From Methylophilaceae bacterium (GTDB lineage Bacteria; Pseudomonadota; Gammaproteobacteria; Burkholderiales; Methylophilaceae): a DNA stretch of 64,000 nucleotides. Shown here piece by piece: positions 18,345-38,249 of this stretch. The stretch's first letter is position 1, and every line of letters starts with the position of its first letter. The notes beneath the pieces are model-generated. The model searched no databases. It was not told the DNA's origin and worked only from the letters and a program-made list of their open reading frames with translations. Location: positions 32,385 through 96,384 of the forward strand of contig JANNOS010000106.1 of assembly GCA_031399315.1 (NCBI GenBank). Reading direction: 5' to 3'. Position numbers and translations under genes: made by a program.

Positions 18345-20927
18345 TTAAGCTGCAACTTCAGCAATTGGAATCACTTTTTTGCCACTACTCAACGTATCAA
18401 GCGCCGCTTTGTATTCCGTCATTTGATTAAAATTAAGGTATTTGTAAATCTCTGCTGTATTCGCCAACTTATTACCCACGGTTTCTAAGTATTCTACATG
18501 CGTTGGCATGCGTCCAAGCTTGGCGCACACCGCCGCCAACTCGGCAGAACCCAAGTAAACACGTGCGTCCTTACCCATGCGGTTATCAAAGTTGCGGGTG
18601 CTGGTGCTAAACACTGTTGCTTTATCGGCCACACGCGCTTGATTGCCCATGCACAATGAGCAACCTGGCACCTCGGTACGCGCGCCTGCCACGCCAAACA
18701 CAGAATACACACCTTCATCGCGCAATTGCGCTTCATCCATGCGGGTTGGTGGGGCAATCCATAAACGGGTTGGAATATTGCCCATGCCATCCAACACTTT
18801 AGCCGCAGCACGATAATGGCCGATATTGGTCATGCAACTACCAATAAACACCTCGTCAATTTTGTCGCCCACTACGGCTGATAGGGTTTTGATATCGTCT
18901 GGGTCATTCGGGCAAGCCACAAGCGGCTCTTTGATAGTGCTTAAATCAATTTCAATCACATGTGCGTACTCAGCATCTGCATCAGGCTTGAGCAATTCTG
19001 GCTTTTTGAGCCACGCCTGCATGCTTTCTATACGGCGTTGTAAGGTGCGTGCATCTTCGTAGCCGTTTTCTATCATGCTTTGCATCAGCACAATATTAGA
19101 GTTTAAAAACTCAATCACGGGCGCTTCATTCAACAACACAGTACAACCATTAGCAGAGCGTTCAGCCGACGCATCAGCAAACTCAAAAGCTTGCTCGACT
19201 TTCAAATCTGGCAAGCCTTCAATTTCTAAAATACGGCCGTTAAACACGTTTTTCTTACCTGTTTTTCCAACCGTTAATGTACCTTCTTGAATCGCTGCGT
19301 ATGGAATCGCATTCACCAAATCACGCAAGGTAATACCGGGCTGCATTTCACCTTTAAAACGCACCAACACTGATTCTGGCATATCCAAAGGCATCGCGCC
19401 TGTAGCGGCGGCAAATGCCACCAACCCTGAACCTGCTGGGAAAGAAATACCAATCGGAAAGCGCGTATGAGAATCGCCGCCCGTACCAACAGTATCAGGC
19501 AAAATCAAACGGTTTAACCATGAATGGATCACACCATCACCTGGGCGCAAACTCACGCCACCGCGACTAGACATAAACTCTGGCAGTGTATGTTGCAATT
19601 TAATATCCACAGGTTTTGGATAAGCGGCTGTGTGGCAGAAGCTTTGCATGACTAAATCACTGCTAAAACCTAAGCAAGCCAATTCTTTTAACTCATCGCG
19701 CGTCATGCCGCCCGTGGTGTCTTGTGAGCCTACTGTGGTCGCTTTAGGCTCACAATAGGTTCCTGGACGTACGCCCTTCACGCCACAAGCTTTACCCACC
19801 ATTTTTTGCGCTAAGGTAAACCCTTTATTCGAAACTGTTGCAGGTGTCGCCGTAATGAATGCTGTCGTTTCAGGTAGTTCCAAAGCTTTACGCGCATTAG
19901 TAGTCAGGCCACGGCCAATAATAAGTGGAATACGCCCACCAGCACGCACCTCATCTGGCATGGTAATTGGGCTTAAATCAAAGGTAGAAATCACTTCTCC
20001 TGCTTCAGACAGCACTTTACCCGCAAACGGTTGAATGATAATCACATCACCAGTTTGCATTTTTGATACATCACATTGAATCGGCAAGGCGCCAGAGTCT
20101 TCTGCAGTATTAAAGAAAATTGGTGCGATTTTACTGCCTAACACCACACCACCAGTGCGTTTATTAGGAATGTTTGAAATATCATTACCCATAAACCATT
20201 GCACAGAGTTAATCGCCGATTTGCGTGATGAACCTGTACCGACCACATCACCTACATAGGCCAATGGCAAGCCTTTTTGTTTTAAGGTATCAATTAACTT
20301 GAGGCCATCGGGCATTTTATTCACCAACATGGCCTTGGCATGCAAGGGAATGTCCGGACGACTCCATGCTTCTTGCGCAGGACTTAGGTCATCGGTATTC
20401 GTTTCGCCATCTACCTTAAACACGACCATTTTAATTTCTTTAGCCAACACTGGTTTGCTAGTAAACCATTCCGCATTGGCCCAAGACTCCATCAATTTCT
20501 TAGCGTGCGTATTACCCGCTTTCATTTTTGCTTCTACATCATGAAAGCTATCAAACATGAGGATAGTGCTACTTAATGCGGTCACTGCATGCGCAGCCAT
20601 CGGCGTGTCTAGTAAGTCAACCAGCGCCAGTACGTTGTATCCACCCAGCATGGTCCCTAGCAATTGCACTGCTTTCTCAGCTGAAACGAGGGGCGATTTG
20701 GTTGCGCCTTTAGCAATATCAGCAAGAAAAGCCGCTTTCACATAAGCAGCTTGATCAACGCCTGCAGGGGTGCGATTTTCTAGCAAATCTAACAACAATG
20801 TTTCTTGTCCTGCTGGCGGTGCTTTTAATAGCTCAACCAGTGAGGCCACTTGCTCCGCGCTTAATGGCAATGGTGGGAGTTCTTGTGCAGCACGTTCTGC
20901 TACGTGTGTTTGATACGCTTTTAACAT
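18345..20927 (-). CDS. acnB: Aconitate hydratase B / 2-methylisocitrate dehydratase
   Basis: [55 protein letters not shown]. Confidence 0.97.
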
Positions 20928-21055
20928 AGTGATTTAAGGCTCAATTAATAAATAACAAAGTTACAAAAAAATTACAGAGAAATACAGACTAGCCGAAAAT
21001 GTCGCGTCAGTTCACATACTTAAAACGCTCACAATTTAAACTAGTTCTTGCTATC

Positions 21056-21367
21056 CTAGTTTTTACTATCTGAATAAAACTCTTTTGCAAACGGAACAGG
21101 GCAGCCAGCGCCTAAAGACCTCACTTCCCATCTATCCAGCACGGCTTTTTGGTAATCTTTACCATGCTTCAGCGCTAAAAAAGCACGAACTTCCGTCACA
21201 TCTGCAAAGCCGTTTTTATCTGCATCCATAGCCAGCACGTTGTCTTCAACTGTTGGGCCTGCATACCTACCATCTTTATCGGTGAGATAGCCCAAAATAT
21301 CTTCTGCACTAGCCGCTGTGGCTACAAGTAGCAAACAAACCAAAGCGATAGCTTTCACATTTTTCAT
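21056..21367 (-). CDS. Secreted protein with one EF-hand
   Basis: Signal peptide; loop DADKNGFADVTE; C-terminal GCPVPF. Confidence 0.7.
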   Translation of the reverse strand: MKNVKAIALVCLLLVATAASAEDILGYLTDKDGRYAGPTVEDNVLAMDADKNGFADVTEVRAFLALKHGKDYQKAVLDRWEVRSLGAGCPVPFAKEFYSDSKN

Positions 21368-21417
21368 TCAACAATTATGACTGAAATTAGAACAGAAAGT
21401 GCAATCTACTCTACAAA

Positions 21418-22974
21418 TCAAGACACAGCATGAATTTCAATGATTTGATGTTGTGCTAGCTTTGCTTCCCCTATTTTTTCTTTCCAAAGCGCAGGCCCAG
21501 TTTTATGTACCGATTCACCTGTCGCACTTACGGCGACAGTTACGGGCATGTCTACCACCTCAAACTCATAAATCGCTTCCATGCCTAAATCTTTAAACGC
21601 AATGACGCGAGATTTTTTAATGGCTTTACTCACCAAATACGCCGCACCACCCACTGCCATCAAATAGACCGATTTGTGTTTTGCAATCACTGCTAGTGCT
21701 TCATCACCACGCTCAGCTTTACCGATCGAACCTAACAAACCAGTGTTCAACATCATCTCCGTGTAATCATCCATCCGCGTTGCCGTGGTGGGGCCTGCAG
21801 GCCCTACCGCCTCATCGCGCACCGCATCCACAGGGCCAACGTAATAAATAAACTTATTACTAAAGTCTACGGGCAACTCCTCGCCTTTTGCTAACATGTT
21901 AGCGATGCGCTTATGTGCTGCATCGCGCCCAGTTAACATTTTACCGCTCAATAATAATGTTTCGCCCGCTTGCCAAGTGCTCGTTTCTGCCTTGGTCACT
22001 GTGTCTAAATTCACCCGTTTAGCCTGTCCACTTGGCGCCCAATGCACATCTGGGTAGCTACTTAAATCTGGCGGCGTGAGCTCTGCTACGCCTGTGCCAT
22101 CCAACTCAAAATGCACATGTCGCGTTGCGGCACAATTGGGAATAATCGCTACTGGCAAGCTTGCTGCATGCGTTGGATAATCCAAAATTTTCACATCCAA
22201 AACTGTCGCAAGACCGCCTAACCCTTGCGCACCAATACCCAAATTATTTACTTTTTCAAAAATTTCTAAACGCAATTCTTCTAACCTATTTTGTGCGCCT
22301 CTTAATTTAAGTTCATGCATATCAATGGGCGCCATCAGTGATTCTTTCGCCAGCAAGACAGCCTTTTCTGCACTGCCGCCTATACCAATGCCTAACATGC
22401 CTGGAGGGCACCAGCCTGCACCCATTTGGGGCACAACGTCCAATATCCAATCCACAATGCTGTCATTTGGATTCAACATCGCAAGCATGGCCTTATTCTC
22501 TGAGCCACCGCCTTTTGCTGCAATGCTGACCTCAACTTTATCGCCTGCAACTAGTGAAACATGCACCACAGCGGGCGTGTTATCTCTAGTATTGGTACGC
22601 TTTCCAGCTGGGTCGGTCACTATAGAAGGGCGTAACTTATTCTCTGGTAGCAAGTACGCGCGGCGTACGCCTTCATTCACCATTTGCTCAACATCTAAAG
22701 CCGCATCTTCTGGTGCACTGAGCCAATTAACTTCCATGCCTACTTTTACAAAAGCAACAACAATGCCAGTATCCTGACAAATCGGGCGCTTGCCTTCTGC
22801 ACACATTCTAGAGTTAGTTAGAATCTGTGCGATTGCGTCTTTAGCGGCAGGTGATTGCTCTAGCTTGTATGCCTCGCCCAAGGCCTGAATATAATCCGCA
22901 GGGTGGTAATAAGAGATATATTGCAATGCATCTGCAATACTTTGAATGAAATCTGATTTTTTTATCGTGACCAT
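21418..22974 (-). CDS. fumA: Class I (Fe-S) fumarate hydratase
   Basis: IADALQYISYYHP, RPICQDTG, KGGGSENK, GWCPPG, TGRDAAHKR, GPTTATRM; start placed at ATG 22974. Confidence 0.95.
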   Translation of the reverse strand: MVTIKKSDFIQSIADALQYISYYHPADYIQALGEAYKLEQSPAAKDAIAQILTNSRMCAEGKRPICQDTGIVVAFVKVGMEVNWLSAPEDAALDVEQMVNEGVRRAYLLPENKLRPSIVTDPAGKRTNTRDNTPAVVHVSLVAGDKVEVSIAAKGGGSENKAMLAMLNPNDSIVDWILDVVPQMGAGWCPPGMLGIGIGGSAEKAVLLAKESLMAPIDMHELKLRGAQNRLEELRLEIFEKVNNLGIGAQGLGGLATVLDVKILDYPTHAASLPVAIIPNCAATRHVHFELDGTGVAELTPPDLSSYPDVHWAPSGQAKRVNLDTVTKAETSTWQAGETLLLSGKMLTGRDAAHKRIANMLAKGEELPVDFSNKFIYYVGPVDAVRDEAVGPAGPTTATRMDDYTEMMLNTGLLGSIGKAERGDEALAVIAKHKSVYLMAVGGAAYLVSKAIKKSRVIAFKDLGMEAIYEFEVVDMPVTVAVSATGESVHKTGPALWKEKIGEAKLAQHQIIEIHAVS

Positions 22975-22987
22975 CTTAAAATAGCGC

Positions 22988-24631
22988 TCATCTTGAGGAT
23001 TTTGCAGTCGCAATGCTCGGATTAATGTCTTTACGCAAGATTTTACCATTTTTGGTGCGCGGAAAGTCCTTGGCTAAATAAACCGTTTTGGGGCTTTTGT
23101 AAGCCGCCAAATGTTGTTTTCCATACGCTAATAAATCATCTGGGCTTGTGTTTGCATCTGGTTTTAAAATCACATAAATGACCACCAGCAATTTATCTTT
23201 TTCAATTTCCTCACCGACAGCTGCACAATCGGCGACATCAGGGTGGCCTTTATACACACGTTCGATTTCGTAAGGCGATACACGATAACCAAAGCTTTTG
23301 ATAATGTCATCTTTACGGCCTAAAAACCAAATATAGCCATCTGCATCGTATTTAGCGTAATCTCCCGTGAAAAAGTAGTTATCATGCTTGTATTTTGCAG
23401 TTTCTTCATCCAAGTTCCAGTAACGCAAAAATACGCCTGGGTCATCTAGTGGCACACTAATCATGCCCTCTTCACCTGTTACAACTTCTTCAAGTGTTTC
23501 CGGGTTAAGTAGTTTGATATGGTGGCCAGGTTGCGGAAAACCAGCTGAGCCAGGACGTATAGAGCGGAATTGACTTTGGCTTAAATAATAAGAAAACTCA
23601 CTCATACCCACTGCTTCATAAATATCTAGACCGAACCGCGCCTTCCACTGACTCAATACTTCATCTGACAAATGTTCACCCGCGCTCATGTAATGACGCA
23701 GGCTCGAAATATCAGTTTGAGTCGCTTCTGTTTTTTGCAAAATTTGGCGATAAATGGTTGGCACGCCAATAAAAATAGTGGCCTGATGTTTTTGAATAAG
23801 GCTTAACCACACCTGCGCGTCATTTTTACCTTCGTGCACAATCACTGTTTTGCCTAAATACAGCGGATCCATCAAACCAGAACCCAACACGTAGGTCCAA
23901 TTAAATTTGCCAGAATGCATGATACGGTCATTCAAACTATCGTCATAATTAAACCAATACTGGGCAGCAGGCTGGCGACCAAGCAGGGCACGGTGCGCGT
24001 GCAATACACCCTTTGGGTAACCTGTTGTACCACTGGTATAAACTAAGTAAGCAGGATCATCTGCCTTTGTTTTATATGACGCATCACATTTTTGGGTGAC
24101 GCTTAAAGCGCTGTCTAAACCCAATACATTTAAGCAACCATGTGGTTGTGTATGCGCGGCTTGCGTTAGCAGTATGTGTGACAAGTTAGGCATGTCTGGC
24201 ATGCCTGCAACCAATTGCTCTTCCATATTGACCCATGCTTTTTGATCAGTCACTAAGACTGTAGCGCCTGAGTCTTTTGCTAAATAAGCAACTTCTTCTG
24301 CAGTGAGTAAAGTAGAAGTCGGTACAGAAATCGCCCCCATTTTCATCGCGCCTAAAAATGCAATTGGGTAGTCTAAGCTATTGGGTAAGCGAATCAGAAC
24401 ACGGTCGCCGACTTTTACTCTTAAATTGCGTAATAATTGTGCAAACTGGTCCGTTTTGCGTGCCAACTCGGTAAAGGTAATTTGTGCTGTACCTAGTACG
24501 TCATCCTCAACAATCATGGCGATATTATTGGCTAGCGGCGTGTTCAAATGTTGGTCGCTACAGGCCACGCCAATATTAAAATGTGATGGAATATTCCATT
24601 GCCATTCTGGGAAATTTTCAAATTTACTCAT
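22988..24631 (-). CDS. Acyl-CoA synthetase (AMP-forming; benzoate-CoA ligase/ACSM-like)
   Basis: YTSGTTGYPKG, YEAVGMSE, TGD, GRKDDIIKSFGYR, P.T.NGK. Confidence 0.9.
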   Translation of the reverse strand: MSKFENFPEWQWNIPSHFNIGVACSDQHLNTPLANNIAMIVEDDVLGTAQITFTELARKTDQFAQLLRNLRVKVGDRVLIRLPNSLDYPIAFLGAMKMGAISVPTSTLLTAEEVAYLAKDSGATVLVTDQKAWVNMEEQLVAGMPDMPNLSHILLTQAAHTQPHGCLNVLGLDSALSVTQKCDASYKTKADDPAYLVYTSGTTGYPKGVLHAHRALLGRQPAAQYWFNYDDSLNDRIMHSGKFNWTYVLGSGLMDPLYLGKTVIVHEGKNDAQVWLSLIQKHQATIFIGVPTIYRQILQKTEATQTDISSLRHYMSAGEHLSDEVLSQWKARFGLDIYEAVGMSEFSYYLSQSQFRSIRPGSAGFPQPGHHIKLLNPETLEEVVTGEEGMISVPLDDPGVFLRYWNLDEETAKYKHDNYFFTGDYAKYDADGYIWFLGRKDDIIKSFGYRVSPYEIERVYKGHPDVADCAAVGEEIEKDKLLVVIYVILKPDANTSPDDLLAYGKQHLAAYKSPKTVYLAKDFPRTKNGKILRKDINPSIATAKSSR

Positions 24632-24637
24632 AAATCA

Positions 24638-24772
24638 CTTCCAAAAATTCAGAATTCCGGGATGAAGCGCAAGGCGTACAGCGCGCAGAAAGCGGAATGT
24701 ACACAAAGTACATGAGCATTTTGAGCACTGCACAACATAGCGATTCGCCTGAAAAATGGATTTTCATAGAAG
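24638..24772. repeat. RPE1-like palindromic element (~135 bp)
   Basis: Imperfect terminal inverted repeats (cttccaaaaattcag.../...ctgaaaaatggattttcatagaag), central atgtac-acaaa-gtacat hairpin followed by gagcattttgagcactg, matching my recollection of the RPE1 core. Confidence 0.7.
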
Positions 24773-25879
24773 CACCCCGTATGGCCAGTTTTGGCGTACC
24801 ACCTGCTCTGGCAACTGCTCCAACACATGTATCGCAAAATCAATATCGCTTGATTTAAGTGCGCGCAGGGCATGCGCACGTAGCAATGTTTGCAGCGCTT
24901 TACCAAACATGGGTGGGTCTAGCATCTCGCCTTCAAACTTAATCGCACCGCCATGCAATGCGTCAGCCTCTATGGCAGCTTTTAAAATCGCCACTTTTTG
25001 CGCGACATCGGTGGGCGAAGGCGTATAAGCCGTTTTGCACAAATGAATATGGCTAGGGTGTATCACTTGCTTGCCAGTCAAGCCCATGGCCGCTTCTTGG
25101 CAAGCATGTTTATAAACTGTGCGTGACTCATTATCACCATGTAAATCCAACCAGCGACGTACATCGTGCGGCTCTAAAAACTTCTCTGGCATGATATTTT
25201 CACCGATGAGCGTTTCAACACCACCAATCACGCCTTTACCCGCAATACGCGCCTCGAACATGAGTTGATTCATGTAAAACTGCAATTCTTCTATCCAGCC
25301 CTCGGGCGTAATGTGAATACCCATTGCTTTTGAAAAATCATGAATACCAAATACAACGTGCTTAACCGTGTTGTATTGCATAATTTCTGGCGCGATTTTA
25401 AGCGATTTTGGATGCTCTATAATCGGTTGAATGGTGATGTGCGGGTTTACGCTCAATAACAAGCTAGATAAATCTCTCACTTCTGGCGCGCCGTAGACTT
25501 CACCTGCCTTAGCCAGCATGACGACGTCGATATAGTCACCCATTTCTCGCACCAACTGCATATCAAGCTCGTATTCATCGGTACGAAAAGAATTACAGCG
25601 AATCGCGACTGTCACGCGCTCATTCACTTTGCGTAACAACGGAAGTTCTTGACGCAGCAAATCGCGGCTCATGACCTTTTGACGGCAACCATCTTCCAAG
25701 TCAAAAATAAGCGTATGCGCAATGGTGTTATGCGCATGTTTTTTCATGCGCGCACTGGCCTGTGTCATGTCTTCGTAAATACCCAAACTAGGGGCATACT
25801 TTACTGGCGGATAATATAACTGTATACCTGGCCAGTAATCGCCTAAGTTAGTTTTTTTAATTATTTCATCACTCATCAT
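24764..25879 (-). CDS. CitE/HpcH-HpaI family CoA-ester lyase (divergent paralogue 1)
   Basis: LIFDLEDG, AIRCN, PIIEHP, VFGIHDF, GLTGKQVIHPSHI, GEMLD. Confidence 0.85.
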   Translation of the reverse strand: MMSDEIIKKTNLGDYWPGIQLYYPPVKYAPSLGIYEDMTQASARMKKHAHNTIAHTLIFDLEDGCRQKVMSRDLLRQELPLLRKVNERVTVAIRCNSFRTDEYELDMQLVREMGDYIDVVMLAKAGEVYGAPEVRDLSSLLLSVNPHITIQPIIEHPKSLKIAPEIMQYNTVKHVVFGIHDFSKAMGIHITPEGWIEELQFYMNQLMFEARIAGKGVIGGVETLIGENIMPEKFLEPHDVRRWLDLHGDNESRTVYKHACQEAAMGLTGKQVIHPSHIHLCKTAYTPSPTDVAQKVAILKAAIEADALHGGAIKFEGEMLDPPMFGKALQTLLRAHALRALKSSDIDFAIHVLEQLPEQVVRQNWPYGVLL

Positions 25880-25911: not shown

Positions 25912-26181
25912 CTATGCGGCTGACAGAGCATGCAATTTATCCATTACAGATTGTTGTGCACCATCTTTTAAGTGTAAATTTTTGAACTGCAAAGTGTTCC
26001 AAAGCTCGTTATCTTGCATCGCTAACAAAGCATCGAAAGCGTGCAATTCATCTAAAGTGAGCGCGTAAAAGTATTGCGCAACAAAGCGCTGCAGCACAAT
26101 GTCGAGCTCCAGCATACCTCGCCTACAGCGCCACGCAAGTCGCCGCTGTTCTGCATCTTTCATGTTTTCCGCATTAAGCAT
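25912..26181 (-). CDS. sdhE: FAD assembly factor SdhE
   Basis: RLAWRCRRGMLELD motif; downstream of sdhB. Confidence 0.92.
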   Translation of the reverse strand: MLNAENMKDAEQRRLAWRCRRGMLELDIVLQRFVAQYFYALTLDELHAFDALLAMQDNELWNTLQFKNLHLKDGAQQSVMDKLHALSAA

Positions 26182-26969: not shown

Positions 26970-26970
26970 G

Positions 26971-28719: not shown

Positions 28720-28735
28720 GTTTTATAAATTCCAC

Positions 28736-29083: not shown

Positions 29084-29102
29084 ATTGTTTTTATTAAAAA
29101 CC

Positions 29103-30703: not shown

Positions 30704-30717
30704 TTTTGATTATCCTG

Positions 30718-31485
30718 TTATTCCAATTCACTCATGTAGTGATGATCGTCTGTTAAGCAGAGCCCTAGCCGCCATTCCATAGGTTTATCACCATAGGTAT
30801 AAGATACGCGCTCTATACTTAATAATGGCGCGCCAACTTTTAGCCCTAATGCTTCAGCAACATCACCGCTTGCCGCAACGGCAGTCAAACGTTCTTCCGC
30901 ACGTATCATACGAATGCCATATTCCGTTTCATACATGCTGTACATCGAACCTTGATTTTCTTCGACTCTAGTCGCATTCAAGCCTTTAAACGGTGCTGCT
31001 GGGATAATAATGTGGTCGTAAATCAATGGTCTACCAGAAAACGTCAGCAGGCGTTTTACATCAATCAGCGCCGCGCTAGCTTTCAATTCTAAAATTTTAG
31101 CAAAATGCGCATCTGCTTTGGTTTTGCCACAAGAGATGAGCTCATTCTGCAGCGTTTCCTTTTGCCCGTTTGCCGCTGTGAGCCTTAAAAAACGCAACTT
31201 GATGCCTTCTTCATTATGCGTTGCTACAAAAGTGCCTTTGCCTTGCCTTCGAATGAGAATGTTCTCGCCCGCTAAGCTATCAATTGCCTTTCTAACTGTA
31301 CCTTGACTTACTTTATAGCGCCCAGCCAATTCAATTTCACTGGGAATCATATCGCCAGGACGCCACTCACCACCAATTAAGCTTTGCGTAAGCAAGACTT
31401 TAATTTGGTCGTATAGCGGCCTATAGCTAGGTGAGTTAAATGCTTTATCCATCATTATGTTTAACAAAGTAGAAATTTCTAACAT
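30718..31485 (-). CDS. GntR/HutC-family regulator (betaproteobacterial 'SdhR' type)
   Basis: PLYDQIK, PSEIELA, VSQGTVRKA, RRQGKGTFV plus UTRA domain; immediately upstream of the sdh genes. Confidence 0.9.
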   Translation of the reverse strand: MLEISTLLNIMMDKAFNSPSYRPLYDQIKVLLTQSLIGGEWRPGDMIPSEIELAGRYKVSQGTVRKAIDSLAGENILIRRQGKGTFVATHNEEGIKLRFLRLTAANGQKETLQNELISCGKTKADAHFAKILELKASAALIDVKRLLTFSGRPLIYDHIIIPAAPFKGLNATRVEENQGSMYSMYETEYGIRMIRAEERLTAVAASGDVAEALGLKVGAPLLSIERVSYTYGDKPMEWRLGLCLTDDHHYMSELE

Positions 31486-31529: not shown

Positions 31530-31555
31530 TTTTATATCTTATATAAGACATAAGA
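31530..31555. promoter_or_regulatory. Palindromic GntR (SdhR-type) operator
   Basis: ttttatatcttatataagacataaga; 24/26 match to the SdhR motif as I recall it (TCTTATGTCTTATATAAGACATAAGA). Confidence 0.7.
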
Positions 31556-31561
31556 TATTTG

Positions 31562-31591
31562 TTGACATTGTAAGAAACCGCTCTATATAAT
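31562..31591 (+). promoter_or_regulatory. Consensus sigma70 promoter for the citE-mch-citE-prpBCD arm
   Basis: TTGACA (31562-31567) - 18 nt - TATAAT (31586-31591). Confidence 0.8.
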
Positions 31592-31645: not shown

Positions 31646-32527
31646 ATGGAACTTCACTTTCGCCCACGTCGATCGATGCTATATGTGCCAGGTTGCAACC
31701 TGCACTATTTGGATCGTGCACGCACCTTAGCTGCCGACTCTGTTATTCTTGATTTGGGCGACCCTATATTAGTAGCAGCAAAAGAAGAATCTCGCCAAAA
31801 CGTTGTGGCTGCTGTTAAACAAGGTGGTTATGGGGCGCGTGAAGTGATTGTGCGCGTGAATAATTTAGATTCTATTTGGGGTCATGATGATATTAAAGCC
31901 GTCGCTAATATTGGTGCCGATGCCATTTTGTTTCCAAATATCGAATCTGCTGAGCATGTGCATGCTGCGCTTAAACTATTAGACGAAGCTGGTGGTGGGC
32001 ATATGCCTATCATGGTGCTGATTGAAAGCCCGATCGCCGTTTTAAATGCCAAAGAAATTGCGGCAGCATCTGAGCGCATTATCTGCATGATGATTGCGAC
32101 CTCAGATTTAACCTCGCAATTGCACGCACGCGTGACACATGAGCAAAGCGCCATATTAACTGCACTATCTTTGGTGATATTAGCAGCCAGAGCTTATGGA
32201 CGCTGTGTGGTAGATGGTATTACTAGTGACTTTAAAAATGTACATGCATTTGAATACGCTTGCAGGCTGGGGCGCGACATGGGCTTTGACGGAAAAACAT
32301 TAGTGCACCCTGGCCAAATCGCTTATAGCAATGATGCTTATACCCCTAAGGCGTCTGAGGTGGCCGATGCGCGGTGCATTATTGCAGCATTAAAAGAGGC
32401 TAATAAATCAGGGCTTGGCACGGTGGTAGTGAAAGATAAATTGGTCGAACACCACCATGTAAAAGCCGCACAGCGGTTGTTAAAACTAAGCGAAATGATT
32501 GCAGAACTTGAAGAAGAGTTTATATAA
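31646..32527 (+). CDS. CitE-family enzyme, (S)-malyl-CoA thioesterase (Mcl2)-like (paralogue 2)
   Basis: RPRRSMLYVPG, IVRVN, LIESP, GFDGKTLVHPGQ, C-terminal KLVEHHHV similar to Mcl2-type LVENLH. Confidence 0.8.
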   Translation: MELHFRPRRSMLYVPGCNLHYLDRARTLAADSVILDLGDPILVAAKEESRQNVVAAVKQGGYGAREVIVRVNNLDSIWGHDDIKAVANIGADAILFPNIESAEHVHAALKLLDEAGGGHMPIMVLIESPIAVLNAKEIAAASERIICMMIATSDLTSQLHARVTHEQSAILTALSLVILAARAYGRCVVDGITSDFKNVHAFEYACRLGRDMGFDGKTLVHPGQIAYSNDAYTPKASEVADARCIIAALKEANKSGLGTVVVKDKLVEHHHVKAAQRLLKLSEMIAELEEEFI

Positions 32528-33613
32528 ATGACAACAACATCCAAAATTATCCCTCAAAAAATTAATAGGGACCGCTTTTTTGAAGACTTCACCTTAAATG
32601 AAGTGATTCAACACGCCACACCACGCACCATTACCGCGGGCGATTGTGCCTTATATATTGGGCTTTACGGCAGTCGCGATCCATTGCATTGCAGCGAGCC
32701 TTTTGCGCAATCATTGGGTTACAAAACGACGCCTGTCGATGACTTATTAGCGTTTCATATTGCGTTTGGTAAAACCGTCCCCGACATTTCCGTGAATGCA
32801 GTGGCTAACTTAGGCTATGCCGATGTGCGTTTTTTACAACCTGTTTTTGTGGGCGACACGCTAAGCACCTCTAGTCAAGTGATTGGTTTAAAACAAAACT
32901 CTAATGGAAAAAACGGTGTGGTTTGGGTGCAATCAACTTCCGTTAACCAAAATCAAGAGCCTGTATTGCGCTGGGTGCGTTGGGTCATGGTACATAAAAG
33001 CAATATAAATGCACCTGCGCCAGAAACTGTGATTCCAAGTTTACCTAGCCATGTTAGCCCAGAGCAGCTACATGTGCCGCAAAGTCTTGTGGTACACAAT
33101 GAAATCAAAACAGCAACAGGCGGACAATATTGCTGGGAGGATTATCAAGCAGGTGAGCGTATCAACCATGCAGCAGGCATGACCATTAACGATAGTGATC
33201 ACAGCTTAGCTACTAGGCTTTATCAAAATAATGCACGCCTACACTTTGATGCACACATGATGCAATCATCAGCCATGGGGGAAAGGTTGGTATACGGCGG
33301 CGTGATTATTTCAGCTTGCCGCGCACTCAGTTTTGAGGGTTTAGAAAACGCGCTTAGCATTCTTGCCATTAATGGCGGCACACACGCTAACCCTAGCTTT
33401 GCAGGTGATACGATTTATACGATGACGGAAGTGATTGATACGTGGTTACTGCCTAACCGCACGGATATTGGCGCATTGCGCTTGCGTATGGTGGGCTTGA
33501 AAAATATTTCATCGGATGAAGTTAACACAATCAAATCAGAACAAGGTTATCACCAAAATGTCGTATTAGATTTAGATTACACCGTGGCAATTCCACGAAG
33601 GAAAATTAAATAA
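32528..33613 (+). CDS. mch: Mesaconyl-C1-CoA hydratase / beta-methylmalyl-CoA dehydratase (tandem MaoC)
   Basis: FFEDF...HATPRTIT.GD.ALY..LYGSR, FGKTVPDISVNAVANLGYA, ATRLYQNNARLHF, NPSFAGDTIY, LDLDYTV: colinear with Mch of Chloroflexus/Rhodobacter. Confidence 0.82.
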   Translation: MTTTSKIIPQKINRDRFFEDFTLNEVIQHATPRTITAGDCALYIGLYGSRDPLHCSEPFAQSLGYKTTPVDDLLAFHIAFGKTVPDISVNAVANLGYADVRFLQPVFVGDTLSTSSQVIGLKQNSNGKNGVVWVQSTSVNQNQEPVLRWVRWVMVHKSNINAPAPETVIPSLPSHVSPEQLHVPQSLVVHNEIKTATGGQYCWEDYQAGERINHAAGMTINDSDHSLATRLYQNNARLHFDAHMMQSSAMGERLVYGGVIISACRALSFEGLENALSILAINGGTHANPSFAGDTIYTMTEVIDTWLLPNRTDIGALRLRMVGLKNISSDEVNTIKSEQGYHQNVVLDLDYTVAIPRRKIK

Positions 33614-34623
33614 TGAACTTACAAAAACCACATCCAAAAGATGCCTTATTCGGTGGCGAAAAACCGTTTCCACTGATCCCCGCTTGTGAACACTTTGCAG
33701 GCAGTGAAAAGCTTATTTTAAAAGCACTTTCACTGCAAGACAGCAATAATCCAAACGCTGTTGGTGCGGTGTTTGATATTACTTGCGATTGCGAAGATGG
33801 CGCAGCAAGCGGTCAAGAGCGTGACCATGCTGAAATGATTGTGCGAGCACTTAACTCTGATGTCAACCAACATAAAATGGCTGGTGCACGCATTCACGAT
33901 TACACACACCCCGCTTGGAAACAGGATATCGATATTTTGGTAGGCGGTGCTGGCAATCTATTAAGTTACATCACTATTCCAAAATGTACCGATTTTGTAC
34001 AAGCGTCTGAAATGATTACTTACATTCAAAATACGACCAAGAGGAATAAAATTAGTCGCAAAATTCCAGTGCATATTTTGATAGAAACGCACGGCGCATT
34101 GAAACAAGTGCACGATATTGCTAGATTACCCTGGTTGCAAGTGCTGGATTTTGGCTTGATGGATTTTGTAAGTGCACATCATGGTGCGATTCCAGCATCG
34201 GCCATGCGCAGCCCTGGCCAATTTGAACACCGTTTATTAGCACGCGCCAAAGCCGAGGTGGTAGCTGCCGCCTTAGCCAATGGCGTGGTGCCAGCGCATA
34301 ACGTCACGCTAGATTTAAAAAATGTGGAAACCACATTTAGCGACGCTAGCCGCGCGCGCAACGAATTTGGCTTTATGCGTATGTGGAGCATTTACCCGAC
34401 GCAAATCCAAGCGATTGTTGACGCGATGAAACCAAATTTTGACGAGGTATCTGATGCTGCAAACATCCTCCTTGCCGCTCAACAAGCGGACTGGGGACCA
34501 ATTCAATATGCTGGCGAATTGCACGACCGCGCTACCTACCGTTATTTTTGGGAGATTTTGCAAAAAGCCAAACTCACAGGCGTAGCAATTTCTGATGAAT
34601 CTAATAAAGCTTTTTTTAGCTAG
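33613..34623 (+). CDS. CitE/HpcH-HpaI family CoA-ester lyase (betaproteobacterial mdh-linked type; paralogue 3)
   Basis: HPKDALF...PACEHFAGSEK, DCEDGA, RIHD, LIETHGA, DFGLMDF, FMRMWSIYPTQI. Confidence 0.85.
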   Translation: MNLQKPHPKDALFGGEKPFPLIPACEHFAGSEKLILKALSLQDSNNPNAVGAVFDITCDCEDGAASGQERDHAEMIVRALNSDVNQHKMAGARIHDYTHPAWKQDIDILVGGAGNLLSYITIPKCTDFVQASEMITYIQNTTKRNKISRKIPVHILIETHGALKQVHDIARLPWLQVLDFGLMDFVSAHHGAIPASAMRSPGQFEHRLLARAKAEVVAAALANGVVPAHNVTLDLKNVETTFSDASRARNEFGFMRMWSIYPTQIQAIVDAMKPNFDEVSDAANILLAAQQADWGPIQYAGELHDRATYRYFWEILQKAKLTGVAISDESNKAFFS

Positions 34624-34643
34624 ATGCCTAAAGAGTAAATAAT

Positions 34644-35543
34644 ATGACGAATCCCATGACTGCAGGTGCACGTTTTCGTGCCGCACTAGCTGCCGAAAAG
34701 CCACTACAAATTATCGGCGCGATCAACGCTTACCACGCCATGTTAGCCACACAATCTGGCTTCAAAGCCATTTACCTTTCTGGCGGTGGCGTAGCAGCTG
34801 GCTCGCTGGGCTTACCCGATTTAGGTATATCTACATTAGAAGATGTATTGATTGATGTGCGCCGCATTACCGACGCCGTCGATACTCCACTCTTAGTCGA
34901 TATCGACACTGGTTGGGGAGGTGCATTTAATATAGCACGCTCAGTAAAAAGTGTGGCAAAAGCAGGTGCGGCGGCAATACATATCGAAGACCAAGTTTCC
35001 GCAAAACGTTGTGGACACCGCCCCAATAAAGCCATTGTCAGCCTAGACGAAATGGTAGACCGCATAAAAGCAGCTGTCGATGCAAAACCCTACGACGACT
35101 TTGTAGTCATGGCGCGTACTGATGCTTTAGCTGTTGAAGGCTTGCAATCGGCGATTGACAGGGCATGCGCTTGTGTTGAGGCAGGCGCAGATATGATTTT
35201 CCCCGAAGCGATGACTGAACTCAGCATGTACAAACAATTTGTAGATGCGGTAAAAGTGCCCGTATTAGCCAACATTACCGAATTTGGTGCGACACCGTTA
35301 TTTACCGTGGATGAGTTGGCAAGCGCTGACGTAAGCATGGTGCTATACCCGCTTTCAGCATTCCGCGCCATGAATCAAGCTGCACTTAACGTGTATCAAG
35401 CAGTAAAAAAAAATGGCTCACAAAAAAATGTACTTAACTTAATGCAAACACGCATGGAATTGTATGAGCACTTGGGTTACCACACATTCGAGCAAAGGCT
35501 AGACAAATTATTCTCAGACGAATTATTCAAGGGAGAAAAGTAG
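34644..35543 (+). CDS. prpB: 2-methylisocitrate lyase
   Basis: [40 protein letters not shown]. Confidence 0.96.
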
Positions 35544-35545
35544 CC

Positions 35546-36709
35546 ATGAGTAAAAGTAACAATCAAACGACTACTCAAGAACCAAAAAAGAAAAAAGGCG
35601 TTGCCTTAGCTGGTGTTAATGCGGGTTCGACTGCCATTTGTACGGTTGGTCATACAGGTAACGATTTGCATTATCGTGGTTACGATATTATCGAGCTAGC
35701 AAAATATGCAACGTTTGAAGAAGTCGCTTATTTACTGATTCATGGTGAATTGCCAAATAAAACACAATTGAGTACGTATCACGCAAAACTTAAAACCTTA
35801 CGCGCCTTGCCAGCGGCATTAAAATTAGTGCTCGAACAAATCCCAAAAAACGCACACCCAATGGATGTGATGCGCACTGGCTGTTCTATGCTGGGGACTT
35901 TGGAACCTGAAGCGGCAGACCGCAATATAGATGCTGCCAAAGACTTGGGTGACAAATTAATCGCTTGTTTCGGGTCAATTTTATTGTACTGGCATCACTA
36001 TAGCCATAATGGCAAACGAGTAGAAATTGAAACCGATGATGACAGCGTTGCGGCACATTTTTTACATGTACTGCATGGTAAAAAACCTAGCCAATTGCAC
36101 ATCGATGCGATGAACACCTCACTAGTACTTTATGCGGAGCATGAGTTTAATGCCAGCACATTTACCGCACGCGTGATTGCGGGTACTTTATCTGATATGT
36201 ATAGCTGCATCACTGGTGCGATTGGTGCATTGCGCGGCCCCAAACATGGTGGCGCAAATGAAGCAGCAATGGGAATCATTGAGCGTTATAGGTCGCCAGA
36301 AGCTGCTGAGGCTGACATATTAGCGCGCATGGCGAAAAAAGAAATCATTATTGGCTTTGGTCATCCCGTTTACACGATTGCTGACCCAAGAAATGAATCA
36401 ATTAAAGCAGTTTCACGTAAATTAAGCGAAGGTAACGGCAATATGACGTTATTTAACGTTTCTTCACGTATAGAAGAAGTGATGTGGCGCGAGAAAAAAA
36501 TGTTCCCAAATTTAGATTGGTACAGCGCCTCTAGCTACCACATGATGGGTATACCTACAGGCATGTTCACACCGATTTTTGTGATTTCTCGCACTACGGG
36601 CTGGGTTGCGCACGTGATTGAACAACGTATAGACAACAAAATTATTCGACCAAATGCAGAATATATTGGGCCAAATAATAGGCCTTTTGTGGAGCTAAAC
36701 GAACGCTAA
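35546..36709 (+). CDS. prpC: 2-methylcitrate synthase
   Basis: [52 protein letters not shown]; between prpB and prpD. Confidence 0.95.
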
Positions 36710-36713
36710 CTAC

Positions 36714-36741
36714 CGTCATTCCCGTGAAAACGGGAATGACG
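36714..36741. repeat. dRS3/RPE-type palindrome (ATTCCC-N8-GGGAAT)
   Basis: cgtcattcccg-tgaaaa-cgggaatgacg, perfect 11-bp stem. Confidence 0.75.
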
Positions 36742-36785
36742 ACCAAAGAAAATTTCGCATCAAATAAAAATTTAGGGATCTTTAA

Positions 36786-38249
36786 ATGTCAGCTCATATT
36801 TCAAACGTACGCCCAGCTCCAGACCAAGTGATTGTCGATATTGCCAACTACGTTGCCGATTACGAAATCAAATCTGATGAAGCATTTGACACTGCGCGTA
36901 ACTGTTTAATGGATACACTTGGTTGCGGCTTTGAAGCGCTAGATTACCCAGCTTGCACTAAACTGCTCGGGCCTGTGATTACTGGCACAGTAGTTCCTAA
37001 TGGCGCAAAAGTGCCAGGTACAAGTTATCAGTTAGACCCGATTTTAGCTGCTTTTAACATCGGGGCGATGATACGCTGGTTAGACTTTAACGACACTTGG
37101 TTAGCGGCAGAATGGGGTCACCCTTCAGATAACTTAGGTGGTATCTTAGCAACAGCAGATTACATTTCACGCAAAAATGTAACCGAAGGCAAAGCAGCGC
37201 TTACGATTAAAGACGTGCTCACCGCCATGATTAAAGCACACGAAATTCAAGGTGTATTAGCCCTTGAAAACAGCTTTAACCGCGTAGGTTTAGACCATGT
37301 AATATTAGTCAAAATCGCCTCTACCGCCGTTGTAACCAAGCTATTAGGCGGCAATAAAGAAGACATTATTAACGCCGTTTCTAATGCATTTGTAGATGGT
37401 CAAAGTTTACGTACGTACCGCCACTCGCCAAATACTGGCTCACGTAAATCTTGGGCAGCTGGCGATGCAACAAGCCGTGCTGTAAGACTTGCTTGGATGA
37501 CCATGCAAGGTGAAATGGGCTACCCAAGCGCACTCACCGCAAAAACATGGGGGTTTTACGATGTGTTATTTAAAGGCAACCAATTCAGATTTCAACGCGA
37601 CTACGGCAGTTATGTGATGGAACAAGTGCTGTTCAAAATCTCATTCCCTGCCGAATTCCATGCGCAAACCGCAGTGGAATGTGCCATTCAATTACATGCA
37701 CAAGTGGGTCGAGAACTACAAACCCTAGAGCAAATCGCACAAATTGAAAAAATCGTCATCACCACGCACGAATCCGCTATTCGTATTATTGATAAAACTG
37801 GCCCACTCGACAACCCTGCTGACCGTGACCACTGCATTCAATACATGGCCGCCATTGGTTTACTCAAAGGCAACTTAACCGCGCAAGATTATGAAGATGC
37901 AGCCGCAGCAGACCCACGCATTGATGCGATTCGCAGCAAAATGGTCTGTATTGAAAAAGAAGAATACACAACGGATTATCACGACCCAGAAAAACGCTCC
38001 ATTGCTAACGCCATTCAAGTATTTTTCAAAGACGGCACCAGCTCAGACAATATCGCCGTGGAATACCCCATCGGCCATCGCCGCCGCCGCCGTGGTGAAG
38101 GCATCCCAGAATTGGTTAAAAAATTCAAAGTGAATTTAAATAGACGGTTTGATGCAAAAAAACAAGCAGATATTTTGGCGTTATGTTTAGATCAAACAAA
38201 ACTGGAAACTACACCAGTAAATGTGTTTATAGATATGCTGGTGGTTTAA
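36786..38249 (+). CDS. prpD: 2-methylcitrate dehydratase
   Basis: [48 protein letters not shown]. Confidence 0.96.

Follow-up and report, generated by a model that had tools for sequence, protein, structure and literature searches.

A methylcitrate-cycle gene cluster of Methylophilaceae encodes six accessory enzymes: CitE-371, an acyl-CoA ligase, a class I fumarase, CitE-293, Mch and CitE-336. Synteny and a gene fusion show that these six belong to a single pathway. As the best explanation of their chemistry, tentative and falling just short of an even chance, we infer that this module would convert acetyl-CoA and pyruvate to propionyl-CoA and glyoxylate and would be coupled to the methylcitrate cycle.

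Gene content and conservation of the cluster

The analysed stretch of 64 kb (the window) harbours the cluster at positions 18345-38249 (Table 1). [quoted passage not shown] In the Methylotenera papers the malic enzyme is named "mdh", cyl and maoC are given no role, and the metabolite that the cluster handles is said to be unknown. The GntR regulator gene ranks among the strongest in-situ-induced genes of Methylotenera (PMC3728764). Growth on acetate is not known for the family.

Table 1. Genes and regulatory elements of the cluster (positions within the window).
Feature	Position	Strand	Remarks
acnB	18345..20927	-	TIGR00117, 1481.7 bits (cut-off 1287)
103-aa ORF	21056..21367	-	between fumarase and acnB
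Fused class I (Fe-S) fumarate hydratase	ORF 21418-23049, likely 21418..22974	-	PF05681 + PF05683
AMP-forming acyl-CoA ligase	22988..24631	-	literature "prpE"
CitE-371 (literature "cyl3"), divergent CitE/HpcH-family CoA-ester lyase	24764..25879	-	PF03328 + PF15617
sdhE (flavinylation factor)	25912..26181	-	PF03937, 75 bits
sdhB, sdhA, sdhD, sdhC (succinate dehydrogenase)	26187..29489	-	NCBIfam equivalogs
Malic enzyme, 398 aa, without PTA domain	29507..30703	-	NF009501, 542 bits, residues 4-397
GntR/HutC(UTRA)-type regulator	30718..31485	-	
Palindrome ATATCTTAT-N7-ATAAGATAT	31534-31558	+	conserved; element as a whole 31534..31591
Predicted sigma-70 promoter TTGACA-18-TATAAT	31562-31591	+	perfect match, 3' of palindrome
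CitE-293 (literature "cyl2", Mmol_0753 type)	31646..32527	+	Glu268 in place of catalytic Asp
Mch, mesaconyl-C1-CoA hydratase / beta-methylmalyl-CoA dehydratase	32528..33613	+	PF19315
CitE-336 (literature "cyl1", Mmol_0751 type), 3QQW/3R4I-family lyase	33613..34623	+	512 bits to 3QQW
prpB, prpC, prpD (methylisocitrate lyase, 2-methylcitrate synthase, 2-methylcitrate dehydratase)	34644..38249	+	all three exceed equivalog cut-offs

Every gene named in the original prediction was found in this region. The 18 genes form two divergent strand blocks, from acnB to the GntR gene and from CitE-293 to prpD. One and the same gene order was seen in all 80 fetched Methylophilaceae loci, as far as each contig extends, and the arrangement is therefore not due to chance. 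As predicted, the cluster is devoid of aceA, aceB, mdh, gltA, ccr and ecm; none of them was found within the 64-kb window, where the remaining genes are housekeeping genes. The literature reports this absence for Methylophilaceae genomes as a whole: the family has neither the ethylmalonyl-CoA pathway nor a glyoxylate shunt (PMC6794327), which speaks for the best explanation. The three expected CitE-family proteins (293, 336 and 371 aa) are present; rather than being unrelated, as had been claimed, they are homologous, deeply divergent paralogues with pairwise identities of 21-28% over partial alignments. The 103-aa ORF had no NCBIfam or Pfam match and no similarity to a small ORF in the equivalent place of another locus (L009).

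Two functional layers make up the cluster, a complete methylcitrate cycle and the six-enzyme accessory module. By homology, the first layer proceeds through PrpC, PrpD, AcnB and PrpB, then Sdh and the fumarase, with the malic enzyme leading from malate to pyruvate. The promoter-like sequence upstream of CitE-293 is the sole 12/12 match in 20 kb. In an alignment of 70 intergenic regions, at least 80% keep the element that it forms with the palindrome. The palindrome is likely the GntR operator, and the TTGACA-18-TATAAT element is likely the promoter of the CitE-293-to-prpD operon.

The accessory genes form one unit

In unrelated taxa the accessory genes constitute an operon of their own that lacks prp genes, and in L152 they occur without prp genes in between. 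A single co-directional array of CitE-371, a ligase~CitE fusion, Mch and CitE-336 is present in 31 metagenomic loci, with a class I fumarase next in line in 11 of them and a malic enzyme 5' of the array in one, L093. Fusion of the ligase to a CitE domain was seen in more than 40 loci. Since unrelated bacteria have all six accessory genes together in one operon, where ligase and CitE are fused, these genes act in one pathway, as the original prediction had assumed. By alignment, the fused CitE domain apparently lacks one or both metal ligands and carries Asp, not Glu; its role may therefore differ, which counts against the best explanation. The acs and actP genes adjoin the module in L009, and acs does so in L092, which counts in its favour.

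Within Methylophilaceae the order CitE-293, mch, CitE-336, prpBCD is kept in 80 of 80 loci wherever the contig reaches. With the roles proposed below, this constant order would place the producer of propionyl-CoA directly upstream of its consumer.

Predicted functions of the accessory enzymes

The MaoC gene of the cluster encodes, by orthology, a genuine mesaconyl-C1-CoA hydratase (Mch), as had been predicted. Full-length alignments gave 417 bits to 4E3E of C. aurantiacus and 359 bits to MeaC of M. extorquens (8HGN), with identities that inspection puts at roughly 60% and roughly half, respectively; the catalytic N234 and H239 are kept.

CitE-336 is roughly three-quarters identical to 3QQW by inspection, and its residues E61, D62, R93, E158, D184 and D305 are invariant. 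Its gene lies directly 3' of the Mch gene in Cupriavidus, Bordetella, Bradyrhizobium, Variovorax and Paraburkholderia; being the constant neighbour of Mch in these five genera, it is likely a beta-methylmalyl-CoA lyase. The pair follows an acyl-CoA dehydrogenase gene in all five genera and a CoA transferase gene in four, so the order of reactions there appears to be hydration and then cleavage. CitE-336 is thus probably a beta-methylmalyl-CoA/malyl-CoA lyase.

In CitE-293 the Glu268 substitution is invariant in 79 sequences. Glu in place of the catalytic Asp characterises the Mcl2 clade of R. sphaeroides (PMC3832036). A Ruegeria protein with the same Glu, whose gene is three genes from mch and adjoins sdh/mdh, shares 42% identity with CitE-293. 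CitE-293 is thus of the Mcl2 type and probably a thioesterase for malyl-CoA (and/or citramalyl-CoA). A Gly at the position of a Glu that is reportedly invariant in the superfamily counts against the best explanation.

CitE-371 belongs to a very small family, since 1.84 billion representatives included about 6 relatives of full length, and its lyase residues E62, D63, R94, E155, D181 and D321 are all invariant (n = 56 sequences). Its homologue is paired with the ligase, adjoining or one gene apart, in 7 of 7 contexts outside Methylophilaceae. CitE-371 is a candidate (S)-citramalyl-CoA lyase or synthase; that it has no characterised relative counts against the best explanation.

All NCBIfam matches of the ligase, which is labelled "prpE" in the Methylophilaceae literature, lie under their cut-offs, those of the PrpE and Acs equivalogs included. 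In the PDB it comes closest to anthranilate/benzoate-CoA ligases and to an AMP-binding protein of Methanosarcina. Mesaconate is a candidate substrate; the resemblance to monocarboxylate/aromatic-acid ligases, and not to any known dicarboxylate ligase, counts against this view.

The fumarase is 69% identical to that of L009. The alignment of the two begins at residue 26, and translation probably starts at M26 (22974). The two-subunit type (PRK06246) gives the better score, 264 bits, as against 184 bits for E. coli FumA, whose cut-off is 1105; the enzyme is a candidate mesaconase.

A possible citramalate-type route

In the route that we favour, CitE-371 would condense acetyl-CoA and pyruvate to (S)-citramalyl-CoA, which the Mcl2-type CitE-293 would hydrolyse to citramalate. 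The fumarase would dehydrate citramalate to mesaconate, the ligase would re-activate it at C1, and Mch would hydrate the resulting mesaconyl-C1-CoA to beta-methylmalyl-CoA for cleavage by CitE-336 into glyoxylate and propionyl-CoA. Propionyl-CoA would be taken by PrpC, encoded in the same operon, while glyoxylate and acetyl-CoA would give malate via CitE-336 and CitE-293, like Rhodobacter Mcl1 and Mcl2, and the malic enzyme would regenerate pyruvate. Thioesterase, fumarase and ligase would jointly shift CoA from C4 to C1 at the price of one ATP converted to AMP, and so stand in for the two enzymes that Chloroflexus uses, a CoA transferase and a C4 hydratase.

The net reaction, acetyl-CoA + oxaloacetate + ATP to succinate + glyoxylate, would amount to an isocitrate-lyase-independent bypass; the original prediction had it right except that it omitted one ATP -> AMP + PPi. 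Its pathway interpretation is partly supported, by the identities of Mch, CitE-293 and CitE-336 and by the unity of the pathway. Several points count against the route: the condensation of acetyl-CoA and pyruvate is unfavourable unless pulled by hydrolysis, each turn costs two ATP equivalents, and Methylophilaceae are described as non-growers on multicarbon compounds.

Comparison with known systems

The predicted scheme is essentially the citramalate cycle of 1997 and, having been proposed earlier on paper, is not a new idea. For R. rubrum (Ivanovsky, Krasilnikova and Berg 1997; PMC8307300) identical intermediates in identical order (citramalate, mesaconate, mesaconyl-CoA, methylmalyl-CoA) were proposed to lead from acetyl-CoA and pyruvate to glyoxylate plus propionyl-CoA, pyruvate being regenerated by decarboxylation of malate or oxaloacetate. 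There, however, propionyl-CoA returns via methylmalonyl-CoA and succinyl-CoA, whereas here the methylcitrate cycle would serve. The R. rubrum cycle is disputed and is not known to have been given a gene set.

The operon ab1917-ab1921 of A. butzleri (Miller et al. 2007, PMC2147049) is homologous to the accessory module, as gene families and look-alike loci indicate. It comprises the same five families (CitE, acyl-CoA synthetase, Mch-like hydratase, second CitE, class I fumarase), with the same step assignment (mesaconyl-CoA synthetase, mesaconase, citramalate lyase), and its authors connected it with malic enzyme and with the methylcitrate cycle. In the loci of this architecture that were compared, identities to CitE-371, ligase, Mch and CitE-336 of the window are 52-69%. 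Unlike in the window, the ligase of this architecture is fused to a CitE-293-like domain with apparently altered metal ligands, and the A. butzleri genes form a single operon without sdh or prp.

With the end of the ethylmalonyl-CoA pathway (Mch, Mcl1 and Mcl2 of R. sphaeroides and Methylorubrum) the cluster shares an orthologous Mch, an Mcl2-type CitE-293 and the lyase-plus-thioesterase logic from glyoxylate to malate. CitE-336, however, scores 58 bits to MCLR and falls into the 3QQW clade, and so is no orthologue of Mcl1; ccr, ecm and mcd are absent from the window, and mesaconyl-CoA would derive from free mesaconate via the ligase. The haloarchaeal methylaspartate cycle relies on class III CoA transferases (Mct) and Meh, as does the 3-hydroxypropionate bi-cycle in its second cycle; here the AMP-forming ligase, CitE-type thioesterase and class I fumarase would fill this role. 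The window showed neither a glutamate mutase nor a methylaspartase. Mesaconate utilisation by B. xenovorans (Kronen, Sasikaran and Berg 2015) shares a class I fumarase as mesaconase, CoA activation and a CitE-type citramalyl-CoA lyase, but is catabolic, depends on a succinyl-CoA-dependent transferase, and has neither Mch nor a link to the methylcitrate cycle.

Alternative explanations

The same enzymes may run in reverse and assimilate or detoxify glyoxylate and propionyl-CoA, which we regard as quite unlikely. The two compounds would pass via beta-methylmalyl-CoA and mesaconyl-C1-CoA to mesaconate, released by hydrolysis, and the fumarase, ligase and CitE-371 would then form citramalate, citramalyl-CoA and finally acetyl-CoA and pyruvate. 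This resembles the second cycle of the 3-hydroxypropionate bi-cycle and is the direction that Miller et al. preferred for A. butzleri, in a purely in silico proposal, for the reason that this organism does not grow on acetate or propionate (PMC2147049); this also counts against the citramalate-type route. Ligase followed by lyase is the simplest view of the conserved CitE-371/ligase pair, the Mch of Haloarcula is about ten times faster in dehydrating beta-methylmalyl-CoA than in the opposite reaction, and an IclR/BhcR-like regulator adjoins the operon in L102. However, no source of glyoxylate or propionyl-CoA is known in Methylophilaceae, and one operon would hold two propionyl-CoA consumers (CitE-336, PrpC) and no producer. 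The CitE-type thioesterase would need an enoyl-CoA instead of a beta-hydroxyacyl-CoA substrate, and the Burkholderiales gene order behind acyl-CoA dehydrogenase implies cleavage.

Catabolism of external branched C5-dicarboxylates present in sediment, such as mesaconate, citramalate or beta-methylmalate and perhaps also methylsuccinate or itaconate, is likewise unlikely. The ligase would activate the acid, Mch and CitE-336 would yield propionyl-CoA and glyoxylate, and the methylcitrate cycle, the malate-synthase-like pair and the malic enzyme would carry all to pyruvate. The 2- to 16-fold induction of the MCC cluster under in-situ conditions, in line also with the citramalate-type route, fits this, as do the combination of class I fumarase, CoA-activating enzyme and citramalyl-CoA lyase in B. 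xenovorans, the TctC or DctPQM transporters beside Burkholderiales modules, and the MFS transporter and MarR regulator beside the CitE-371/ligase pair of Turneriella. Yet no transporter gene was found among the 18 genes in any of the 80 Methylophilaceae loci, the cluster is already well transcribed in pure cultures on C1 substrates only (RPKM roughly 100-2600), and the accessory genes are retained in low-GC (35-37%) relatives, probably streamlined OM43; all three points favour the citramalate-type route. CitE-371, the best conserved accessory gene (84-93% identity), would not be needed. The current annotation, plain propionate oxidation with the ligase as PrpE, external propionate entering the methylcitrate cycle and CitE/Mch as unrelated passengers, has the literature names of gene and pathway on its side and is very improbable: the ligase stays under all PrpE/Acs cut-offs, the accessory genes form prp-free operons elsewhere and here lie inside the prp operon behind its sole consensus promoter, and the Methylotenera papers themselves leave the substrate open.

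In the best explanation, the cluster would represent, at the level of genes, a case of the proposed citramalate cycle, and a citramalate-type route would offer a plausible answer to what role the MCC cluster plays in Methylophilaceae.

Gene content and conservation of the cluster

The cluster (window positions 18345-38249) is the methylcitric acid cycle (MCC) cluster already described for Methylophilaceae. The published cyl1, cyl2 and cyl3 are CitE-336, CitE-293 and CitE-371, the three CitE-family proteins named here by their length in amino acids. Papers on this cluster report strong conservation, high transcription and 2- to 16-fold in-situ induction, and say outright that neither the function of the MCC nor the metabolite it handles is known. 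RPKM values of about 100-2600 were reported for the cluster genes on C1 substrates alone. Methylophilaceae are described as incapable of using multicarbon compounds. The family reportedly has neither a glyoxylate shunt nor a serine cycle nor an ethylmalonyl-CoA pathway (PMC6794327).

Features of the cluster and its surroundings (positions in nt of the window)
Feature	Position	Strand	Remarks
UPF0114 membrane-protein gene	16696-17229	plus	near acnB
DUF2914 membrane protein, 364 aa	17226-18320	minus	abuts acnB
acnB	18345-20927	minus	TIGR00117, 1482 bits; aconitase type expected to hydrate 2-methyl-cis-aconitate
103-aa ORF	21056-21367	minus	inside cluster; no Pfam/NCBIfam family
Fused class I fumarate hydratase	predicted start 22974	minus	
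AMP-forming acyl-CoA ligase	22988-24631	minus	below every NCBIfam equivalog cut-off
CitE-371, CitE/HpcH family, 371 aa		minus	
sdhE, sdhB, sdhA, sdhD, sdhC		minus	
Malic enzyme, 398 aa		minus	
GntR/UTRA regulator		minus	
Palindrome	31534-31558		just 5' of promoter
Sigma-70 promoter	31562-31591		TTGACA-18-TATAAT
CitE-293, 293 aa		plus	divergent arm
Mch, double hot-dog hydratase, 361 aa	32528-33613	plus	divergent arm; PF19315
CitE-336, 336 aa		plus	divergent arm
prpB, prpC, prpD	end 38249	plus	divergent arm
215-aa ORF	38258-38905	minus	at cluster edge; no Pfam/NCBIfam family
587-aa ORF	48147-49910	plus	weak partial aldehyde-dehydrogenase match only; no NCBIfam family

ORF listing and NCBIfam/Pfam scans placed all genes named in the original prediction where it had located them. 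PrpC, PrpD and PrpB exceed their equivalog cut-offs (NF009006, 673 versus 550 bits; NF006943, 887 versus 575; NF008455, 538 versus 353). The asserted absence of aceA, aceB, mdh, gltA, ccr and ecm was borne out within the 64-kb window, the remainder of which is housekeeping; mcd and cimA were likewise absent there. The three CitE proteins had been called unrelated; all three are present, but they are homologous, with 21-28% identity over partial alignments. Gene order was unchanged in 80 of 80 Methylophilaceae loci, as far as the contigs reach.

The 103-aa ORF probably matches Mmol_0765; as a conserved partner of ligase and fumarase it was rejected, having no similarity to the ORF at the same place in the high-GC contig L009. 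The cluster holds no transporter genes. The DUF2914 protein is the sole membrane protein adjoining it and a possible transporter candidate. A 67%-identical copy of the UPF0114 gene lies between ligase and fumarase in L009 (13358-13870) and in a second high-GC contig, L092 (14857-15108), a recurrent association.

Window positions 30000-36000 were recovered almost in full (up to 95% of sampled words) from metagenome runs of freshwater sediment. None of the RNA-seq runs searched holds this sequence, all matches being sediment metagenomes. In the nearest species representative, Mch is only 82% identical to that of the window.

Mch and CitE-336

Full-length alignments of Mch gave 417 bits and about 60% identity by inspection with 4E3E from Chloroflexus aurantiacus, and 359 bits and about 50% identity by inspection with 8HGN, the genetically defined MeaC/Mch of Methylorubrum extorquens. 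Pairs of characterised Mch enzymes share about 60% identity. The catalytic residues Asn226 and His231 of MeaC align with N234 and H239 of the window protein. Judged by its sequence, this hydratase is a true mesaconyl-C1-CoA hydratase/beta-methylmalyl-CoA dehydratase. This MaoC protein was rejected as a C4-type hydratase (Meh or Ich) on account of its identity of about 50-60% to three characterised C1-type Mch enzymes. The Mch of Haloarcula takes the C4 mesaconyl ester, citramalyl-CoA and malyl-CoA as well.

CitE-336 aligns at 512 bits, with about three-quarters identity by inspection, to 3QQW, a structural genomics entry from Ralstonia eutropha JMP134. It keeps the six catalytic or metal-binding residues E61, D62, R93, E158, D184 and D305, all of them invariant, and falls in the clade of 3QQW and 3R4I, a widespread family that has no characterised member. 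We rejected CitE-336 as an orthologue of Mcl1, with only 58, 46 and 30 bits to the Mcl proteins of R. sphaeroides, M. extorquens and C. aurantiacus.

An orthologue of CitE-336 lies immediately 3' of the Mch gene in five genera, represented by the loci of Cupriavidus necator H16 chromosome 2, Bordetella bronchiseptica, Bradyrhizobium, Variovorax and Paraburkholderia (L001-L005). In all five, a 388-aa acyl-CoA dehydrogenase is encoded 5' of the pair, in four a class III CoA transferase and in one an MmgE/PrpD protein. This order is beta-oxidation-like: activate, dehydrogenate, hydrate, cleave. Because of the constant adjacency to Mch and the hydrate-then-cleave gene order, CitE-336 is a probable beta-methylmalyl-CoA lyase, predicted to release propionyl-CoA and glyoxylate. 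The orphan entries 3QQW and 3R4I thereby gain a functional prediction. The five loci themselves look like a C1-route for methylsuccinate or mesaconate that is uncharacterised and ends in propionyl-CoA and glyoxylate; the main text of the paper on C5-dicarboxylates in C. necator contains no characterisation of its Mch and CitE-336 locus.

CitE-293 is of the Mcl2 type

In four of four PDB alignments, Glu268 of CitE-293 occupies the position of the catalytic Asp of lyases and malate synthases (Asp299 of the reference enzyme MCLR), and this Glu is invariant among 79 CitE-293 orthologues. The same Glu is found in TM1040_RS03035 of Ruegeria, which is 42% identical to CitE-293 and whose gene lies three genes from an Mch gene and adjoins sdhCDAB, mdh and sucCD. 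This neighbourhood matches the Rhodobacter map from mcl2 to mch, and we take TM1040_RS03035 to be the mcl2 orthologue. [quoted passage not shown] Of the other superfamily residues, CitE-293 keeps D39, R70, E127 and D154 (Asp45, Arg76, Glu141 and Asp168 of MCLR). Gly38 invariantly replaces Glu44, a position described as invariant across the superfamily, and the Ruegeria protein retains Glu there. The structures published so far give no explanation for why some members of the CitE family act as lyases and others as thioesterases (PMC3832036).

CitE-371, ligase and fumarase

All lyase residues of CitE-371 (E62, D63, R94, E155, D181, D321) are present and invariant, and it is the best conserved accessory gene within Methylophilaceae (84-93% identical). 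Its scores against characterised Mcl proteins are 40 bits or less. Among 1.84 billion representatives no characterised relative was found: about six full-length proteins have 39-51% identity, and beyond these the matches are generic CitE proteins at about 30%. CitE-371, together with CitE-293, is a candidate for the formation of citramalate or citramalyl-CoA from acetyl-CoA and pyruvate.

The ligase was rejected as PrpE: it reaches no equivalog cut-off, PrpE is absent among its best matches, and its constant partner is CitE-371. The nearest solved structures are anthranilate/benzoate-CoA ligases and a Methanosarcina AMP-binding protein. In the fumarase, the two subunits of the class I type are joined in one protein. 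Its mechanical ORF extends over window 22975-23049 and there overlaps the ligase gene by 62 nt; since the alignment with homologues begins at residue 26 (M26), the start in the table is the probable one, and it leaves a gap of 13 nt to the ligase. Kronen and Berg (PMC4682846) conclude that mesaconate hydration is a property of most and perhaps all class I fumarases. The genes of fumarase and ligase are both genetically linked to Mch, and the enzymes are candidates for a mesaconase and for the activation of mesaconate to its C1-CoA ester, respectively.

The accessory genes form one unit

Methylophilaceae matches filled both a homologue search with CitE-371 and a scan of genomes with Mch. Contexts outside the family were found with the 3QQW sequence from the PDB alignment, with a distant CitE-371 representative and by a metagenome scan with a fused ligase. 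In seven of seven such contexts, a CitE-371 homologue is followed by the orthologous ligase (42-68% identical), directly in six and with one gene between them in L092. Beyond the ligase, the high-GC contigs L009 and L092 carry a UPF0114 gene and then a class I fumarase. Both have an acetyl-CoA synthetase gene divergently upstream, and L009 additionally carries actP/DUF485.

On contig L093, from a metagenome-assembled genome, the order is malic enzyme, CitE-371 homologue (64%), an 840-aa fusion (11175-13697), Mch (56%) and CitE-336 homologue (61%). In the fusion, the ligase part is 55% identical and the CitE-293-like part 34%. Used as query against metagenomes, the fused protein returned 80 loci. 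Thirty-one encode CitE-371, the ligase-CitE fusion, Mch and CitE-336 in one co-directional array, with a class I fumarase next in line in 11; the GC content of most of these loci is 27-37%. In the alignment of the fused CitE domains (L093, L095-L140), the equivalent of D154 is K, N or T, that of E127 remains E in most domains but is Q in some, and Asp, not Glu, fills the last catalytic position, so that one or both Mg-binding residues are apparently replaced. As far as the alignment tells, the fused domain may not be a normal lyase.

In L152 (48% GC), a divergon of the Methylophilaceae type, gntR is directly followed by CitE-371 and ligase, and sdh and malic enzyme do not lie between. The accessory genes are also kept in loci of 35-37% GC, which from GC content and literature are probably of marine OM43; one of these, L150, keeps all but the fumarase, whose position is past the contig end. 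The gene fusion and the repeated co-linearity in unrelated lineages strongly support one common pathway for the three CitE proteins, Mch, ligase and fumarase, which can be separated from sdh and prp. The main new result is that the cyl, maoC and "prpE" genes, unexplained before, are one conserved pathway unit.

An Arcobacter-type locus (L102, 3789-5847) carries genes for an IclR/BhcR-like regulator and a LeuC-family dehydratase large subunit divergently 5' of the accessory operon. These neighbours hint at glyoxylate- or pyruvate-responsive control and at a link to citramalate or methylmalate chemistry.

Regulatory elements

The divergent intergenic region between gntR and CitE-293 spans 160 bp and contains a perfect sigma-70 promoter, the sole 12/12 match in 20 kb. 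Just 5' of it lies the palindrome ATATCTTAT-N7-ATAAGATAT, and an alignment of 70 intergenic regions shows the block of palindrome and promoter conserved in at least 80%. The palindrome is a likely candidate for the GntR operator. The GntR regulator was reported among the most strongly in-situ-induced genes. With only 23-24% identity, it was rejected as an orthologue of the GntR proteins encoded beside Mch and CitE-336 in Bordetella and Bradyrhizobium. Terminator-like sites showed no excess over shuffled sequence.

Relation to the Arcobacter operon and the citramalate cycle

Genes ab1917-ab1921 of Arcobacter butzleri RM4018 encode a CitE protein, an acyl-CoA synthetase whose residues 550-825 form a CitE domain, an enoyl-CoA hydratase, another CitE protein and an anaerobic fumarate hydratase (PMC2147049). 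The low-GC loci share exactly this architecture. All five families occur in the window, with 52-69% identity to proteins of the 31 loci so arranged; the window genes differ from the Arcobacter operon in lying on two divergent arms and in having an unfused ligase. An in silico proposal of 2007 for A. butzleri gives the synthetase the role of forming mesaconyl-CoA, the fumarase that of converting mesaconate and citramalate into each other, and a CitE protein that of citramalate formation or cleavage, in connection with the methylcitrate cycle and malic enzyme (PMC2147049). The same chemical scheme is the citramalate cycle, proposed in 1997 for Rhodospirillum rubrum (reviewed in PMC8307300).

As a chemical scheme, the pathway of the original prediction is therefore a rediscovery of the proposals of 1997 and 2007, now considerably better supported by synteny and gene fusion. 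Its application to the Methylophilaceae cluster appears to be new: we found no link of either proposal to this cluster in the literature searched, where the cyl statements of the early Methylotenera papers are represented through later papers. Of the parts of the citramalate cycle, Mch, the candidate lyase CitE-336, prpBCD, acnB and malic enzyme stand in one divergon.

Proposed pathway, its direction and alternatives

Besides a complete methylcitrate cycle and malic enzyme, the cluster holds the six-gene unit, with an orthologous Mch and an Mcl2-type CitE among its members. We consider it likely that Mch and CitE-336 connect beta-methylmalyl-CoA to the propionyl-CoA used in the methylcitrate cycle, CitE-336 carrying out the putative cleavage. 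In the remaining steps, CitE-371 would handle citramalyl-CoA, and ligase, CitE-type thioesterase and fumarase would shift CoA between the carboxyl groups via free citramalate and mesaconate, a trio that would stand in for Mct and Meh of Chloroflexus. The full scheme from acetyl-CoA and pyruvate to propionyl-CoA and glyoxylate is put forward tentatively, with its chances near but below even. The net equation predicted for it in combination with the methylcitrate cycle (acetyl-CoA + oxaloacetate to succinate + glyoxylate) is right if the conversion of one ATP to AMP + PPi, which had been left out, is included.

Chemically, the pathway could run either way, because the AMP-forming ligase and the thioesterase each make one step irreversible. 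That the same enzymes run in the reverse, 3-hydroxypropionate-like direction is nevertheless quite unlikely in our view. Formation of propionyl-CoA and glyoxylate is favoured by the position of CitE-336 directly 5' of prpBCD, behind the only consensus promoter (80 of 80 loci, where the contig reaches), and by the Burkholderiales modules, which imply hydration followed by cleavage. A beta-hydroxyacyl-CoA also suits a CitE-type thioesterase better than an enoyl-CoA, and acs (L009, L092) and actP (L009) flank the module in two lineages. Catabolism of external C5-dicarboxylates is unlikely; the lack of a transporter in the cluster and the transcription on C1 substrates alone argue for the favoured direction. 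Plain propionate oxidation, in which the accessory genes would be passengers, is very improbable, as these genes recur together in unrelated lineages. Propionyl-CoA and glyoxylate are not known to have another source in Methylophilaceae, which again favours formation of these products. Against the favoured scheme stand the main substrates of the ligase's family, which are monocarboxylates, the fused CitE domains with apparently altered metal ligands and Asp for Glu, the lack of growth of Arcobacter on acetate (PMC2147049) and the description of Methylophilaceae as not using multicarbon compounds. The remaining probability falls to chemistry outside all of these schemes, e.g., on non-C5 substrates.

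Taken as a whole, the accessory module could be the missing genetic basis of the citramalate cycle, a reading that we regard as doubtful in its entirety. Its parts would be CitE-371, a thioesterase-type CitE, a mesaconase fumarase, a mesaconate-C1-CoA ligase, Mch and a 3QQW-type lyase, with the trio of thioesterase, fumarase and ligase doing, driven by ATP, the work of the intramolecular CoA transferase in Chloroflexus. The module, the methylcitrate cycle, malic enzyme and pyruvate dehydrogenase would then add up to a complete cycle for the assimilation or full oxidation of acetyl-CoA. Such a cycle would replace the glyoxylate shunt and the broken TCA cycle, which lacks 2-oxoglutarate dehydrogenase, in Methylophilaceae including marine OM43, and the same cycle would operate in Arcobacter-like bacteria. 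We speculate that, with malate formed from glyoxylate, malic enzyme and pyruvate dehydrogenase would allow complete oxidation of acetyl-CoA without 2-oxoglutarate dehydrogenase.

The question of the cluster receives a concrete and testable answer, not a proof, and each gene that was unexplained now has a specific, falsifiable predicted activity. If the citramalate-cycle reading holds, the cluster would be the first gene-defined case of a pathway that was proposed in 1997 and has been doubted since, and a further isocitrate-lyase-independent route of C2 assimilation. It would also explain a possible use of carbon at the level of acetate by abundant freshwater and marine methylotrophs and by relatives of Arcobacter.
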